A stretch of 64,000 bases of DNA from Octopus vulgaris (taxonomy: Eukaryota), in contig OX597823.1 in assembly GCA_951406725.2 (NCBI GenBank), positions 92,318,001 through 92,382,000 of the forward strand. Reading direction: 5' to 3'. A program made the translations under genes and the position numbers. Below the pieces are notes generated by a model. That model worked only from the letters and a program-made list of their open reading frames with translations, did no database searches and was not told where the DNA came from. Positions 16,035 to 61,749 of the stretch are shown piece after piece (the stretch's first letter is position 1; every line of letters starts with the position of its first letter).

Positions 16035-16225
16035 CATTCTATATTTAAGAGATGAGGAATTATGTACATTATTTACATTTGACGGATATTTGCCTTCGTC
16101 TTGTTTGCTGTTAACACATGGTTTCGGCTGATATACCCTCCAGCCTTCATCAGGTGACTTGGTAGTGTTTCGAACTTGGGTTCTCATCCCTAAGGCTTTT
16201 CTTTCGATGTTGTTATTATTATCGA
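16035..16225 (-). mobile_element. Penelope pLTR-like repeat with HHR (left copy of an inverted pair)
   Basis: Reverse-complement homologue at 20742-20890. Confidence 0.75.
16115..16156 (-). ncRNA. Minimal type I hammerhead motif, PLE type, with a mutated stem III/cleavage site
   Basis: CAC-CTGATGAA-GGCTG gagggtatat CAGCC-GAAA-CCAT-GTG. Confidence 0.7.
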
Positions 16226-16239
16226 TTCCAAGTAATGAC

Positions 16240-16320
<81 letters not shown>

Positions 16321-18082
16321 AAGAAGAAGAAAAAGAAGCTGCGCTACGAACAATGTTTACGTGCAGAGAATCCTAAACTGATAGATCCTTCTCTTAATGT
16401 AAGAGTCGAAGCCCGTCATGCTTCAATGTCAACAAAACAAACTACAAACCGCGATGGTCGGCGAGCGGATTACAAAAGACCACGTACCCGAAAATTGAAC
16501 CAAAGTCTGATTGAAAAATCATCTACTGGATCAAATCTTCCCGACACACAGGAGCTGGACGTACCCCACAACTGGAATATTCCAACAGATGGCCATCCAT
16601 GCTCGTCACCAAACACTCAAAAGAAAAAGAAGGAAAGATGGACTAGGGAAGATAATAAAGAAGTTCTTGTGGCCTTCTACCATGCCATATATTTCCCCAC
16701 AGATAAATCGAACACAATAAAACCTACATAAACTGGAGACAGAAGACCCTACATAGAAGCAAGACCCTACATAGACAGTAACAAACTTGCCAACGACAGA
16801 AGAAATATTATAAAAAAAATTACTGACTGAAGTAGAGATTGATAAAATTAGACAAGCAGTACAGATAGAATGAACGAAGCTGCAGCTAAAGAAGATAATA
16901 CAGAGGAAATAATTATAGACCAGCCCAGAGTTGATAAAAACGAAATAAGGATTGAAAGAGTTAGTATAAGTGATATGCAAAGTGAAATACTCCCTGAACC
17001 AAACATAAACACTAAGACAGATGAACATCAAATAGATGAAGAAAGTCACACAAATATTGACCCGACAGAACTGCATGAGCTAAAAAATCAAATTATGATT
17101 GAATGCCTGAAAATTAAAGAAACCAGTATGGATGAACGTGATACACTCCCTAAAATCCGCAACTCTAACCAAAACGTGAAAATAATTGGTAAAATCCGGC
17201 TTGCACTTAAGGATATAATTTCAGCTAATGATGTTGATATCACAGATCTCAACCACCTATACTATGCATCCGCGAAAATCTCAGCGATCCTATGTGGTAA
17301 AAAGATTAGAAAACAGCAACATTTCCACAAAAAGCCTCCTTGGCAAGAGCGTTTGCAACAACAAATTAAACTATTTAGATCTAACATTGAATATTTGAAA
17401 AACCTTAAGGTTCATATGACTACCAAACCTACAAAAACCCCAAAACTAATGAAAAAATATAATATGAAAACTATACTTGATATTGATGCCACCATAGAAA
17501 CCATCAAGCAAAAGGTATCTGCTAAAGCTGCCCGCATAGCGAGGTATTAAAAGCGTATTAGATTCTTCAGGGACAACAACATGTTCAAAAATAACCCCAA
17601 AATTTTTTACAGGAACATAGGAAAAACACCAGTTACCTTAAAGTCTGTACCATCAAAAGAAGAAGTGCAGGGATTTTGGAATAAAATTTGGGCAGAAGAA
17701 TAAACACACAGCGAAAAGGCCCTCTGGATTGATAGGATATCTAAAGAACTGGACTCCTTAGAAGAGCAAAAGTGGGAGGGTGTCAAGGTAGAAGATATAA
17801 GATCTGCTCTCACGAGGTCAAGCAAATGGAAGTCTCCAGGAAAGGATATAATCCCTAACTTCTTGTTGAATGCCTTCCCAGAGGGCCATGAACTGCTAAC
17901 AGAACTTTACAATGATGTTTTGCAACACCCTAGTAGGATGCCTCCTTGGCTAGTTAATGGCTTAACATTCCTGCTTCCAAAAAGTGAAGAAGCAAATGAA
18001 CCAAAAACTATAGACCCATAACCTGGTTAACAACTATGTATAAAACACTAACATCTGCCCTAACGGAATATACCTATAGTTT

Positions 18083-19201
18083 TTGACAGACAGCAGCATA
18101 TTCCCTAATGAACAGAAAGGATGTAAACCTGGATCCTACGGTTGTAAAGATCAACTACTCATTAATAAGATGATCTTAGAAGATTGTCACAAACGACACA
18201 AAAACTTATCAATAGCCTGGATAGACTATAAAAAGGCTTTTGATAGCCTACCACATAGCTGGATTAAGAAATGCCTAGAAATGTATAAGATAGCACCTAC
18301 ACTGCGAAACTTTTTGTCTGTAAGTATGAGATCATGGAGAACCACACTAACTTTGAACAGTGACAATGAATCTCTAAATGCTGGTGATGTAAAAACTTCA
18401 TGTGGCATTTTCCAGGGTGACTCACTATCACCACTCCTCTTCTGTTTAGCCTTAATACCTCTCTCAAAACTGCTCAATGACGCACAGTACGGATATAAAA
18501 TGTTTGATAAAAATATAAATCATCTCATTTACATGGATGATTTAAAGCTCTTTGCAAAAATTGACCAACAACTCAAGGGCATACTAGCGATTGTCAAACA
18601 ATTCAGTGATGACATCAGAATGCAATTTGGCCTCGATAGGTGTACAAAAGCTACCTTTATCAAAAGAAAAATGACAGAAACATCTAACGTTAACCTTGAC
18701 CAGCAGAATGTCATAAAAGAATTAGACCCAGCGGAGAACTACAAGTATCTAGGGGTAATTGAAGGAGACGGAATAAGGTATTCAGTGATGAAGGAAAGGG
18801 TCAGGAGAGAATGTTATCGAAGAGTAAGAGCAATACTCATGACAGAGCTGAATGCGAGAAACAGGATCGAAGCGATCAATGCATTAGCCATACCAGTCGT
18901 GACTTATAGTTTCAATATCGTTAACTGGTCAATTACTGAAATATGTAATCTTGACAGAAAAATAAGAAAACTGTTGACAATGCATAGAATGCACCACCCT
19001 AAGGCAGATACAGAACGACTTTATCTGCCAAGAAAAGAGGGAGGCCGTGGACTTTTACAACTGGCAATAACAATGAAGATTGCTACAATTCGCCTAGACA
19101 CCTACCTGAAAAACTCTGAGGACTGGATGTTAAAACTTGTCTCAAAACATGAAAACAAGAAAGCATCATACTCAGTAATAAACAGGCAAATGAATATCTA
19201 A
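18083..19201 (+). pseudogene. Reverse transcriptase segment of the R4/Dong element
   Basis: [58 protein letters not shown]. Confidence 0.95.
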
Positions 19202-19309
19202 GTGAATTCCGAATAGAACAAATTTCGGAATTAGAGATAGACATACAAGAAACAGGCACAGAAAAAGTTAAGCGCATGAAAACCCGTGCTAAATCTGCGG
19301 CCTTAGATA

Positions 19310-20044
19310 TTGATAAATGATAAATGGCAAGAAAAACCTCTCTATGGCAAATACTCAAAGAGAGCGAATAATGCAGATGTTGACAAAGCCCTGACCCATC
19401 AATGGCTAATGGCCTCTGGCTTAAAATCTGAAACAGAAGGGTTTATCATAGCAGCTCACGATCAATGCCTACCAACGAGAAACTACCAGGCCAACATATT
19501 AAAGATCGGCAGTAGACCAACGTGTCGTGTATGCCAGCAACAAAATCAAACCATTGATCATGTGGTCTCCAAGTGCAGTCTTCTAGCGCCTACAGAGTAT
19601 CTCAACAGGCATGATAGAGCTGCACAATATATTCACTGGGTAATCTGCAAAAACCTGGATTTGCCCCATGAAAAAAACTGGTGGGAACACAAACCACCCC
19701 CAGTGCTTGAAAATGACCACATCTCACTCCTCTGGAACTTCACCATTCAAACTGACAGAAAGATAGATGCAAATAAGCCAGACATCATATTGAAAGACTT
19801 CAAACAAAGAACATGCCTCCTCATTGATATGACTGTCCCAATCGATATAAACGTATCTGTCAAAACCTACCAAAAACTGAGCAAATATAAAGATCTTGAA
19901 ATAGAAATCAGTAAAATGTGTAAGCTGAAGACTAAAACAATACCTGTTGTCATAGGTGCCCTGGGAATGATAGCAAAAGGGGCTGATTTCTACCTAACTC
20001 AGATACCAGTAAACCCCAAAATGGCAGAAATACTTTCTATGTAA
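19310..20044 (+). pseudogene. CCHC zinc knuckle plus restriction-like endonuclease segment
   Basis: CRVC-x8-H-x4-C, RHD, KPDIILKD, IDMTVP, KLSKYKDL, IPVVIGALG; the terminal TAHIL motif seen at 36950 appears deleted. Confidence 0.93.
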
Positions 20045-20194: not shown

Positions 20195-20585
20195 TCTTTA
20201 TATATAAAAGTGAAGTTGTGTGTCTGTCTCCTACGATTTATATTCCTAACTACTCCCACATTTTGCGGTGCAGTTTAACCAAAACCGGGTATCTTATAGT
20301 CGTGATTCATATCGAGCCCTTCTAGGTATTAGCGCACGTCTACGATGAGTCTACGATTAAAAAAAAAATACCATCATTTTTCACCATTTCAATGTATTTT
20401 TTGCTATTATATAAGGGAAGTAACTCTCTAGAAATGTATTATTAAATCTCAGAACGTAAAAAGCTACAGTAACACCCCCCTTTGTGGTTAGCCATATTGA
20501 GATGGCTATTATACGTTACATCTCTAAATATGCTTATATAGTTATTTCCCTTAGAAACCCGAGCAACGCCGGGCGATACTGCTAG
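20195..20585 (+). mobile_element. Non-autonomous Helitron (391 bp) inserted in the Dong 3' UTR
   Basis: 5' TC, 3' CTAG, subterminal hairpin CCCGAGCaacGCCGGG (20558-20573), inserted between A and T with no TSD; empty-site equivalent at ~37131-37174. Confidence 0.88.
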
Positions 20586-51455: not shown

Positions 51456-52145
51456 TTAAGGGAGTGTAGAGACAGTCATTGAGAGGAGAGGGTTGTGCTG
51501 AGTGCGAAAGGAGTTTGCGTTTGTAGACTGAAAATGTAACGCTGTTCCAGGCGGAGTTGTGTGTGTGGATCCATAGCACAGGGTGACGCTGAAGATGGAG
51601 ATATTAGAGGTGGAGTGGTTGGCCAAGTGGAAATGATGGGCGACGGGGGTGTCTGTACGTAGCCGAACATCTTGTAGATGCTCGGTCACCCGGTAGGCCA
51701 CCTGGCGGCCAGTCTGACAAACGTAGAGTTTGTTGCAGCGATTACATCTAATGCAATACATAAGCCTGGAAGAAATGCAGGACAAGGACTTTCGAATGTG
51801 GAGGGTGTGCTGGTTGGTTCCAGTAAGGGAGGTGGTGTTGGTGATGAAAGGGCAGTTGTGGCGGCGGGATCTAGAGCAAAGGAAGGATCCGGGTGGGGCT
51901 GGGATGAAAGCAGCGAAAGTGTTAAGGACCAGTAGACAGGGTTGGTTTTTGGAAAATGGGGTGGGGGTGGTACGACGGAAAGCTCCCAGAATCCTCCGAC
52001 GAGGAGTATGGTGGACGGGTGGAAAAGGAGGGAAAATTGGGTGCGGTTGGTGGATGGGTGTTGGGAAGGGGAAAGGGAGGTGGTGCAATCGATTAAACGG
52101 GCGCTGGCAAGGGCAGTTTGGACGAGGGTGGATGGGCATCCTCAA
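51456..52145 (-). mobile_element. Penelope-like element 3' remnant: GIY-YIG endonuclease pseudogene
   Basis: CSRSRRHNC, LMYCIRCNRCNKLYVCQTGR, RVTEH, PVAHHF, frameshifted LRLEQRYIFSLQT. Confidence 0.88.
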
Positions 52146-52233
52146 TATACATATACATACATACATACATACATACATAATACATACATACATACATATA
52201 TATATATATATCTTATATATATCTTATATATAT

Positions 52234-58560: not shown

Positions 58561-59760
58561 GCGCTAGCGATGACTGTAAATAGCGGTTATGGTAATCGAA
58601 TGTTGTATATTTTATTGTGCTGTGTGGGGAAAGGATAAATGGTAGACAAGATGAATGTAACTACTCGATATTCCCGTAAGCCTTTATTAAATGTTTACAT
58701 ATAGTTTTTTGGTGGTTTATAAATTAATAATTATAGGGAGGTAGATTATGATAGCATGTTATTTTTGTGAAGTGCAAATGATAGGAGAGTGAACGCAGCA
58801 TTGCGGGAAGAGAGGTTGGCGTGATCTTTCATAGAAACCATATTTTATGTTGAATGCAAGCGTCGAGTGTCTCGCATTTCAGCTGTGTTTAGTTACGTCG
58901 TGGGATAAGGCATTCTTGTGTATTTATAGATGCATATAGGGAAAATTATATGAAAATATTAACATATAATTTACTAACACACACACACAAACACACTGGC
59001 ACACACTCACGCATGCACGCACACAGATGTACACACATACACAGATATACAGGGTGCTATGTGTAAACTGTCACCATTTCCATCATTAATTCCGCGCTTT
59101 CGCGTTGTTTGCTTTTGATTTTGTCGACTACACAGTATAGTAAGGTCAGATGGGCACCGGAAGCTCCCATACGAACATTTGAGAGTGTTTGAGTGAGAAT
59201 CTGAGGATAGTGCGGAGGATTCGGAAAGAGTTGGATGCGATTGCAAAGGTATGGCAGCTTGAAAAAACTCACTCTAATCGTTCTAATAAAAAAAGAAACT
59301 AGTTGGTGAGATCCAGGCCAACGATCCCTCCAAGTCAATCAGATCCAGTGCCAGGGACATGGGACTGTTTGAGTTTCTTGTTTCATGCAGGCAGTGCATA
59401 AAGCCATTCAGTATTCCTCGTACAAGATGAGAAGGTACCAATTATATCCCATGCCATCAAAGAGCATAATAAAGACCGTACTACGAAGCTTTTGAACAAA
59501 CTGAAGCATCTCTTCGAACCGAACATGCTTTGGTTATTCTCGGACGATAAAATTTTCTGCTAGGATCAGATGGTAAACACACAGAACAACGTCTGGCTTG
59601 CCGTCTCCACAAAACTTTTACCGGGAATGATAAAAATAAATGTAAAGTATAAAAGCCATCTCAATATGGCTAACCACAAGGGGGCGGTACTGTAGCTTTT
59701 TAGCCCCAGGAGATCATTGTCATCAGATGGCTTTAGACACACTTTCTGTGCCCTTAAAGT

Positions 59761-59891
59761 ATTTGCAAAGGGAGGCCATCCCTTTCTCGTAAGCCTGAGT
59801 GATACGCACCGGACCGGTTTCGAGATTATTGTCTCTTATCAACGGGCGGTAATCACCAGGTCACGATGAAAGACAAGGCCTGCTTGCAAAT
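59761..59891 (-). ncRNA. Type I hammerhead ribozyme candidate (U3-A8 core, GUC site) on a long stem I
   Basis: CGCCCG-TTGATAA-GAGA caataa TCTC-GAAA-CCGG-TC-CGGTGCG; predicted cleavage between 59812 and 59811. Confidence 0.75.
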
Positions 59892-60049
59892 ATATAAGAG
59901 TTTTTCTAGTGACGTCTGCCACTTATTTCGAAAAATTGACTGCAATCATTATTAAATTTCAGAAGGAGATGTCAACAATAACCGCTCGAGCGGTTAGCGG
60001 TTACTGTTTACATCTCCTTCTCCAGACGTCACTAGAAAAACTCCTATAT

Positions 60050-60180
60050 ATTTGCAAGCTGGCCTTGTCTTTCATCGTGACCTGGTGATTACCGCCCGTC
60101 GATAAGAGACAATAATCTCGAAACCGTTCCGGTGCGTATCACTCAGGCTTACGAGAAAGGGATGGCCTCCCTTTGCAAAT
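60050..60180 (+). ncRNA. Second hammerhead copy (U4C and a stem III mismatch)
   Basis: CGCCCG-TCGATAA-GAGA caataa TCTC-GAAA-CCGT-TC-CGGTGCG. Confidence 0.65.
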
Positions 60181-61749
60181 ACTTTAAGGGCACAGAAACT
60201 GTGTCTAAAGCCATCTGGAGACGATGATCTCCTGGAGCTAAAAAGCTACAGTAACACCCCACCTCCTTTGTGGTTAGCCATATTGAGATGGCTTTTATAC
60301 TTTACATTGTCGAGCGGTTACTGTTTACATCCCGTTCTGAGATTTGATAAAAATAAAGCATCAAGTTAACATCATGGTGTTTGGTGTGATCACTAGTGAT
60401 GGTAATATTATGCCTCCATTCATCTTCCCAGAGATTCAACACAGAGGCCTACATCAGGCCTGGAAAAGGCAGTGCTGCCATGGTTCAAGAAGGTGGTTGC
60501 TGGAAGAAACTATGTCTGGTAACAAGACTCTGCACTATGCTACACATGCATGAACAACCAGTGATGGCTCTCAGACAATTTCCGCGATCACATCACCCCT
60601 TACATTTGGTCACCTAACACCCCAGACTGCAATCCTCTTATCTATTATGTGTGGGACGCTGTTGCGTGAGGGACCAACAAATCTCTTTGTGGCTGTGGTT
60701 AAAGCCAATGGCGATTTTATTGAATATAGTTACTCTTTAGTATTTCAAGATTTTTTTCTGTAATTTTGGTAAATATATCTGTTAAAATGAGATGTCACCG
60801 TTATTTTCGCTTTTGTTTAATTTAGACGACAGTTTATTCACCGCACCCCGTATATAAACTAAGATATATTAATTTTCCTGTCCATAAATAATTTCGTTTT
60901 CATACCCGAAATCTCCCAGTATCTACCCGCCATCTTCCCTCTTTGATTCATTTTTCTTCAGTACTGATAATCGAAACTTCAAAGAAACCTTTACTTTTCA
61001 TTTGACCATTAAACTACCACAGTTACAGCTCTTTCCCTTCGTACCTTGTTGAAATTTTGCCACTTTTGGCCTATACACAACAAACACTCGCACAGACACA
61101 CACACGCGCGCGCATGCATACTATACGCATATGTATGTACATGTCTAAATATGAATATATATATATATGCGTTTATGTATGTATATATATATATGTAAAT
61201 AGATAGATAGATAGATAGATAAATAGATTAATAGATAGACAGAAAGAGTTGTGTTTATGTGAGCATGGCGTGTGTGTATATATACATATACAGATATGCA
61301 TATGTATTTATATATGTGGTTGATTTTTGTAATATGCCGACATGTTCATGTAGTTACATTTGCATGGAGTTGTGCGCATTTGCCATTCAATCCTTCATAG
61401 ATGTGATGTAAGGGAAGACATCGGCAACAGAAAGTGAATCCAGATATCAACTCGCTATTTATTACTCGCAGTTTTGGACAATGAATGTCACACTTTCCTT
61501 AATATAAATGTAGATAAATATTGTAATGTTACCTATTTTGTTTGTGGTAATAACAACCTATTCTGACTCCTATATGGATCCCCATCATTATTTCTATTTA
61601 TACTTACTCTGTGACGAATAACAAAGCAATAGATTTTCAAACATAAAATTATCTTAAACTTAGCGCAGGGGTTTCGAAATAAATCACCCCTTCTCAATAT
61701 CGTTTGAGTTCTATTTATTCAGTTTTTCATTGATTCCTGAAGAAATCTT

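Follow-up and report, generated by a model that had tools for sequence, protein, structure and literature searches.

The analysed window was a 64,000-nt stretch of the Octopus vulgaris genome (GenBank assembly GCA_951406725.2, contig OX597823.1, positions 92,318,001 to 92,382,000 of the forward strand), and a 704-bp insert at window positions 59641–60344 is very probably a copy of a 358-bp non-coding retrozyme that bears a hammerhead ribozyme motif and is copied in trans by the reverse transcriptase (RT) and GIY-YIG endonuclease of Penelope-like elements. Genome-wide, the family consists of a monomer in partial tandems; its 5′-ends are variable, its 3′-ends fall at either of two sites, and an opposite-end rule holds for the inverted and direct copies of one insertion.

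The insert contained no open reading frame (ORF) of ≥120 aa and, as stated in the first-pass annotation of the window, was flanked by an exact 13-bp target-site duplication (TSD), TGATAAAAATAAA, at 59628–59640 and 60345–60357. An empty paralogous copy of the host repeat (locus L239) carried the 13-mer only once, with its two flank matches sharing exactly 13 bp, and the repeat is therefore a true TSD. The host was a decayed transposase-like repeat, whose reading frame resumes across the insertion site and which we take, from a translated motif, to belong to Tc1/mariner; a Pfam search with its two short pieces gave no match. Contigs of other samples contained no joint skipping the insert, two junction-crossing contigs with fewer than 31 element letters being left uncounted. 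Inverted arms were located at 59681–59918/60023–60260 (95%) and 59639–59682/60265–60308 (98%), differing at 12 of 280 aligned positions. Thus, the two arms of about 280 bp annotated earlier were real, but the left one was longer and comprised a whole inverted monomer, when the direct side showed a 41-bp deletion and a 42-bp tail. The features of the locus are as follows, with unit positions referring to the 358-bp monomer.

59628..59640, plus strand: left copy of the TSD (13 bp), the last 2 bases overlapping the element end; single copy in L239
59639..59989, minus strand: inverted whole monomer, unit positions 287–358 and then 1–286, with the short end and no tail
59751..59900, minus strand: extended stem I rod of 49 pairs with bulges, bearing the hammerhead
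59812..59842, minus strand: intact type I hammerhead core, U3 at 59842 and A8 at 59837, predicted cut after C17 at 59812
59851..59870, minus strand: left-arm site, empty here, at which other copies carry a long interspersed nuclear element (LINE) of the apurinic/apyrimidinic endonuclease (APE) type
59980..59995, no strand: head-to-head junction, a perfect 16-bp palindrome; both arms begin at unit position 287
59988..60021, plus strand: first partial direct unit, positions 287–316 with a 7-bp duplication
After the first partial direct unit: 41-bp deletion of unit positions 317–358
60023..60308, plus strand: direct unit, positions 1–286
60071..60090, plus strand: right-arm LINE target site, empty here, 24–31 nt downstream of a TATA-like run
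60099..60129, plus strand: damaged hammerhead copy, U4-to-C at 60100 and stem III G-to-T at 60127
60309..60350, plus strand: Penelope-type tail, positions 287–328, at this end only; the last 6 bases overlap the TSD (5/6 match)
60345..60357, plus strand: right copy of the TSD
59300..60700, plus strand: host repeat interrupted by the insert

The direct side is longer than one unit, and therefore a multimer or a circle served as template, two cases that look alike at this locus. Within 59961–60021, the first direct piece has one variant base in common with the inverted arm; this base was absent from the terminal tail and from the printed upstream sequences of 74 junction copies, and reflects either copying of the same template unit or later homogenisation of the central hairpin. 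The two hammerheads of the insert lie on opposite strands, so that any one transcript carries just one of them, and a read-through transcript was predicted to fold into a single long double-stranded stem burying the hammerhead. On these grounds the window locus is likely an inert, dead product, its intact ribozyme being without a same-strand partner.

The genome assembly searched for further copies (2.8 Gb in 227 contigs) was rich in microsatellites, and a first look with one arm as query returned 1811 candidates, 40 of which were scored. Genome-wide, the unit was recovered as a 358-bp monomer forming partial tandems, to which an inverted 5′ copy was joined at some loci and not at others. At locus L015, unit positions 177–358, 1–358 and 1–332 follow each other head to tail with a period of 358 bp, and a sister family (B) formed a 357-bp tandem. 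A natural tandem of the unit has the coordinates G000:C28:11929229-11929926. At least two consecutive complete hammerheads were present at some loci (L015, L098) but not at the window locus, and five same-strand hammerhead pairs spaced by 357–362 bp were found among the first 100 of 200 pattern matches. A 33-base core pattern, in which C3 and G8 were permitted, had 36 exact matches in the genome, all of them U3–A8, and a 24-base unit junction had 78; the reversed control of each gave none. Given a divergence of 4–10%, a family copy number in the hundreds is suggested. The best copies differed from the majority base by a median of 4%, and together with the differences between the arms this bears out the claim of a young family only moderately. 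An inverted 5′ piece was present in 24 of the 59 loci analysed for their ends and missing from 35. The term fold-back element thus describes the window copy and not the nature of the family, in which the unit is the monomer and the inversion is an optional by-product of insertion.

When folded as a circle, the monomer was highly paired (z −2.4 to −6.6 for four units). Contigs of four sequencing runs, their RNA type being guessed, covered the unit in a form from which strand, ends and circles were not readable, and the high run depth over unit positions 177–290 came from sister families and from a fragment captured in another repeat. One such captured piece was seen in the window at 20410–20560, where a short inverted-end repeat had taken up a mini-insertion of the retrozyme (inverted 311–329 and direct 215–283) with a short duplication of its own; the very high depth in the sequencing runs indicates that the captured piece was amplified by its carrier repeat. 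Three families have a similar short reading frame in the tail, which we regard as a side effect of conserved hairpins.

The ends of the insertions were recorded for 59 distinct loci, i.e. 90 loci less duplicates. The 3′-ends fell into two classes about 48 nt apart, at unit positions 280–290 (25 of 59 loci) and 325–342 (28 of 59), and the remaining six ended elsewhere, several owing to a later insertion. In 20 of the 24 loci with an inverted piece, the inverted and direct copies ended in opposite classes; none ended in the same class, and four were unclassed. Another 40 loci, fetched by the junction 24-mer and including a few repeats of earlier loci, gave ten opposite ends and one same. Altogether, 30 of the 31 classed loci have inverted and direct copies with opposite end sites, which is the signature of the Penelope tail. 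Inverted pieces varied in length and 5′-ends were ragged. The TSDs lay in AT-rich DNA and varied between 8 and 16 bp where readable, and 14 of 59 copies ended in (TA)n.

Penelope-like insertions are described as a partial tandem with an inverted 5′-truncated copy and a tail of 30–40 bp at one end (PMC8557442), and the Penelope enzyme of Anolis is reported to cut both strands at AT-rich sites and to start in vitro at two internal RNA sites bounding the tail (PMC11167929). Since the opposite-end rule fits this published tail and the two start sites, each nicked strand would prime at a different start site. The kinship proposed in the first-pass annotation, of a non-autonomous hammerhead retroelement related to Penelope-like elements and non-LTR retrozymes, is in agreement with the unit, its end classes and its TSDs.

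The hammerhead sits at the tip of a long rod, as had been described: both arms, read outward, fold into it (z −6.6, reached by 0 of 200 shuffles), with 49 pairs when the core was held open in the fold and a four-pair hairpin at the tip. The annotated hammerhead of the left arm has an intact U3–A8 core (UUGAUAA/GAAA/UC) with a 4-bp stem II and a self-complementary ACCGGU stem III, but reads on the minus strand, and its plus-strand counterpart in the right arm is mutated at two positions, both of them damaging. The predicted cut between 59812 and 59811 was placed correctly. The motif conforms to type I hammerheads in its conserved core with a Watson–Crick 3–8 pair, its stems I and II, and its open-ended stem I. 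The Rfam model Hammerhead_HH9 matched the left arm at 59789–59860 on the minus strand (32.5 bits, E 1.3e-5) and the right arm at 60081–60152 on the plus strand (24.6 bits, E 0.0045). As predicted, a core of this type escapes CUGANGA searches. The U3–A8 motif is not new, since this variant of Penelope hammerheads, as well as opposite-strand hammerhead pairs 100–700 bp apart, was published in 2014 (PMC4209133).

A looser core pattern gave 200 genome matches and none in the reversed control. Sister families B, C, D, A′ and F were about 65–85% identical or less to the family of the window (A), and their rod sequences were different. For covariation, 25 hand-chosen copies in five groups were aligned, family C being left out as too divergent to align. 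When the structure of the window copy was applied to these, 84.9% of the cells could pair, compared with 37–48% in slid controls. Two-sided changes occurred in 24 of 56 pairs, a number reached by 0 of 500 shuffles, and RNAalifold returned 34 pairs, 12 of them with two-sided change. The 3–8 pair was U–A in 21, C–G in three and U–G in one of the 25 copies; by family, it was U–A in A, B and C and C–G in A′ and D, and G8 and a C3 were observed in F. Hence the covariation claimed for the U3–A8 pair is seen against the sister families, together with that of the rod, stem II and the stem III palindrome, when within the family the pair is fixed (U3 61/61, A8 61/61, and every exact core match).

Of 111 cores, 86 had a perfectly palindromic stem III, for which seven sequences, 6 or 8 nt long, were recorded. 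In family A, 42 of the 49 parsed cores of junction-selected copies carried ACCGGT (17), ACTAGT (17) or ACCGCGGT (8), and 38 of 60 uninterrupted junction-selected copies passed all core tests. This stem is too short for a monomer and could form only in a dimer, and the palindromes support the dimer-type stem III that had been suggested. For the natural tandem at L015, the swapped dimer fold was computed at −234.7 kcal/mol and two monomer rods at −231.2 kcal/mol. Taken with the covariation, these models support selection for a putative dimer-cleaving hammerhead in the master copies.

In the proposed cycle, a tandem locus would be transcribed into RNA longer than one unit, in which two hammerheads could swap stem I strands, pair their palindromic stem III and cut out a monomer; the excised monomer may then be circularised. 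A Penelope protein would nick both target strands about 13 bp apart, and reverse transcription would begin from the two nicks at internal start sites near positions 285 and 332. The expected outcome is a head-to-head pair in which the direct copy has the tail and the inverted copy lacks it. The 5′ strand of stem I is occupied, in other copies of the element, by a sequence-specific LINE.

Several points weigh against this interpretation. Neither HH9 match attains the gathering score of 52, nor did Rfam match any of 12 loci bearing related motifs at this threshold. Relatedness inflates the covariation counts, and the structure used had been taken from the window copy itself; one of five measures, further pair types, was no better than shuffles (365/500). 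The advantage of the dimer fold at L015 is just 3.5 kcal/mol, and a family B tandem with its 5′-end cut short favours monomers (dimer −184.7, monomers −193.2). The tail of 42–50 nt is slightly longer than published. No autonomous partner with a similar pseudo-long terminal repeat (pLTR) was found in 109 loci of four Penelope-like families, the genome having more, and the two of these 109 loci that held a sister-family copy both held it beside a microsatellite. Cleavage and circles are drawn from sequence and fold prediction. Eight of nine Xenopus retrozyme dimers failed to cleave in vitro (bioRxiv 10.64898/2026.07.22.740005), and in Anolis the hammerhead needed protein and was dispensable for insertion, hammerhead mutants having no effect on insertion in vitro and no reads ending at the cut site (PMC11167929).

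The Xenopus and Anolis results also speak for an element that is mobilised by Penelope proteins, but with a hammerhead that does not cut in the cycle, the fold being kept for protein binding or packaging and copies being made from linear tandem transcripts; the insertion ends, which map to the tail and not to C17, would suit this as well. Such a cycle is nevertheless improbable, as the catalytic 3–8 pair, GAAA and U16.1–C17 are kept while the stems change and seven palindromes fill stem III, and as mussel repeats of the same size (350–390 nt) are reported to cleave and to accumulate as circles (PMC7229834).

The copies might instead be 3′ fragments, i.e. pLTRs, of an autonomous Penelope-like element yet to be found. 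Their layout, tail and hammerhead are those of pLTRs (PMC8557442, PMC11167929), a 2026 preprint traces the retrozymes of animals to Penelope pLTRs, and in it 24 of the 57 Xenopus families show homology to annotated elements that are nearly all Penelope-like (bioRxiv 10.64898/2026.07.22.740005). On the other hand, in 74 junction copies the 60 bases upstream were the unit's own tail, the inverted piece or flank, near-two-unit tandems of 357–358 bp exist, and none of the 109 Penelope-type loci uses the unit sequence as its pLTR, which leaves this origin very unlikely. Among the copies examined, an ORF for RT and GIY-YIG was neither in the unit nor joined to it.

Least credible is a fold-back DNA transposon or miniature inverted-repeat transposable element (MITE) with long terminal inverted repeats and a passenger or chance hammerhead: the window copy alone looks like one with its 280-bp inverted arms and TSD, but this is excluded in all probability because 5′-ends are ragged and TSD length is variable, in addition to which inverted pieces vary in length or are missing and the RNA structure covaries on one strand.

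For the favoured retrozyme copied in trans, a partner was searched for with three protein queries, 30 longer stretches, blastn and nhmmer, and none was found. The genome holds intact, young autonomous Penelope-like families, and in the three described here no pLTR sequence is in common with the unit. Family E (L221:369-4380, L201-L230) is abundant, young and autonomous, and is almost confined to (TA)n. It has a partial tandem of 3986 bp, a frame of 850 codons that is RT and GIY-YIG-like, and two 3′-ends separated by about 42 nt; like the retrozyme, it carries a U3–A8 hammerhead whose stem III is ACCGGU. Core and stem III are thus alike, but without pLTR similarity family E was not put forward as the partner. 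Another family (L181-L183) has intact 1008-codon frames with a different small hammerhead upstream of the ORF, and a related Penelope-like GIY-YIG endonuclease fragment was present in the window at 51456–52223 on the minus strand. In a third Penelope-like family (L122-L150), a minimal U3–A8 motif follows the ORF at a distance of about 600 bp; its stem III is palindromic and AT-rich, and its cut position is occupied by U. At L046:1467-1829, a retrozyme copy with a 10-bp duplication was found inside the coding region of a Penelope-like element.

Several copies of the unit were broken at positions 49–68 by an insert, which proved to be a 5.3-kb LINE with a zinc-knuckle ORF1 and an APE-RT ORF2 (e.g. 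L231:1199-6471, L288, L290-L310) and the Pfam domains RVT_1, Exo_endo_phos, zf-RVT and zf-CCHC. Of 28 distinct LINE 5′ junctions read by eye, 25 were at the site in retrozyme families or in duplicated target, one was in other DNA and two were of a sister subfamily. A genome pattern of the LINE 3′-end, which misses copies with G at its last position, gave 54 matches, also read by eye: 32 in retrozyme families A, A′, D and F, 17 in one different target of the sister subfamily, and five elsewhere. A duplication of 14–22 bp with at most two mismatches was present in 21 of the 23 loci with both LINE ends, two of these being 5′-truncated. The hammerhead core begins 28 nt (21 loci) or 35 nt (two loci) after the LINE end, and a TATA run precedes the duplication by 24–31 nt in 17 of the 23. 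The LINE or its non-autonomous derivative was carried by ten of the 74 junction copies examined (of 78). This derivative, 1.65 kb long and containing ORF1 only, sits at the same target site (L234:1254-2901, L235, L236, L330, L048), its ORF1-like frame being 28% identical to ORF1 of the LINE. A more distant subfamily was found in family C at a nearby position (L284). In the sister subfamily, stacked copies followed each other head to tail every 5276 bp with a short duplicated target at each junction, and the target repeat had no Rfam match at gathering score. Genome coordinates of these elements are:

G000:C1:68120698-68125970: example copy of the LINE
G000:C5:29178950-29211000, C9:59204170-59252000, C27:38302860-38314281: stacks of the sister LINE

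The LINE is probably Tx1-like; this label is our own, clade names being absent from its homologues and from the atlas clusters. Target-specific LINEs of the Tx1 clade, some of which insert into other transposons, include Tx1 in Tx1D, Keno in U2 and Tx1-Mar in Mariner-N4_AMi (PMC4494074), and the likeness extends to APE and RT, a zinc-knuckle ORF1, one fixed site in a repeat, a duplication of 14–22 bp, tandem stacking and a non-autonomous derivative. In contrast, the target is here a hammerhead retrozyme, entered 28 nt upstream of the core. In the literature searched, no report of a retrozyme as target of a Tx1 or other target-specific LINE was found, and this targeting is the more novel part of the finding. 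A LINE in the stem I of a ribozyme would represent a new target class for sequence-specific retrotransposons and allow a test of how targets change.

The targeting itself is observed, and a three-tier chain of parasites may tentatively be built upon it, in which Penelope-like elements would mobilise dimer-cleaving retrozymes and Tx1-like LINEs would track the retrozymes. We regard this chain as possible but rather doubtful. With a TATA-like run about 25–30 nt upstream of its landing site and the ribozyme core 28 nt downstream, the LINE might obtain its 5′-end through the borrowed promoter of the repeat and have its 3′-end cut by the hammerhead. With six diverged retrozyme families as targets and target sequences that differ, site choice would follow position or RNA structure more than DNA sequence.

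Compared with known systems, the element resembles the metazoan non-LTR retrozymes in its non-coding monomer (350–390 bp in these), single type I hammerhead and short tandems (PMC7229834; bioRxiv 10.64898/2026.07.22.740005), as well as in TSDs of >4 bp, a highly self-paired monomer and Penelope-like elements in the same genome, and the 358-bp unit with its one type I hammerhead falls within the 150–450 bp set for this class. It differs from published descriptions of these in the U3–A8 core, which tops a rod of about 49 bp, in mostly partial tandems with no long arrays among the loci examined, and in a Penelope tail and inversion seen directly on a non-coding unit, which is so far a DNA-level entity. 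With endonuclease-bearing Penelope-like insertions it has in common the partial tandem, the inverted 5′-truncated copy, the one-end tail, AT-rich or (TA)n targets and a hammerhead upstream of the tail (PMC8557442, PMC11167929), but it has no ORF and a tail of 42–50 nt. The minimal Penelope hammerheads, including Schistosoma Cercyon, likewise have U3–A8, a palindromic stem III, a dimer model and opposite-strand pairs; as given for them in PMC4209133, stem I is 4–5 bp and stem II 7–8 bp, compared with the long stem I and 4-bp stem II found here, where a series of 6- and 8-nt stem III palindromes occurs in one genome.

U3–A8 hammerheads, retrozymes and the insertion layout are all published, and the window element is a new family among known animal retrozymes; no description of such an octopus or cephalopod hammerhead or non-autonomous Penelope family was found in the literature searched. 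Penelope copying of retrozymes, which the 2026 preprint argued only from co-occurrence and homology (bioRxiv 10.64898/2026.07.22.740005), here receives direct evidence at the level of insertions, from an opposite-end rule that is strict for a non-coding unit of 358 bp. The unit is also a very small substrate for the two-start-site mechanism. The seven stem III palindromes and the flips between U–A and C–G constitute a natural experiment for the dimer model, which predicts cross-cleaving families: if it is true, mixed dimers of ACCGGU with ACUAGU or ACCGCGGU would fail, and matched ones would cleave.

A link of the retrozyme to the large LINE at 16–20 kb of the window was considered and rejected, the only unit sequence nearby being a short piece within another repeat. 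This LINE, at 16132–20044, is broken and unrelated to the finding; it encodes an RT, matched by Pfam RVT_1 at E 3e-21, and towards the C-terminus a restriction-like endonuclease region, and is presumably R4/Dong-like.

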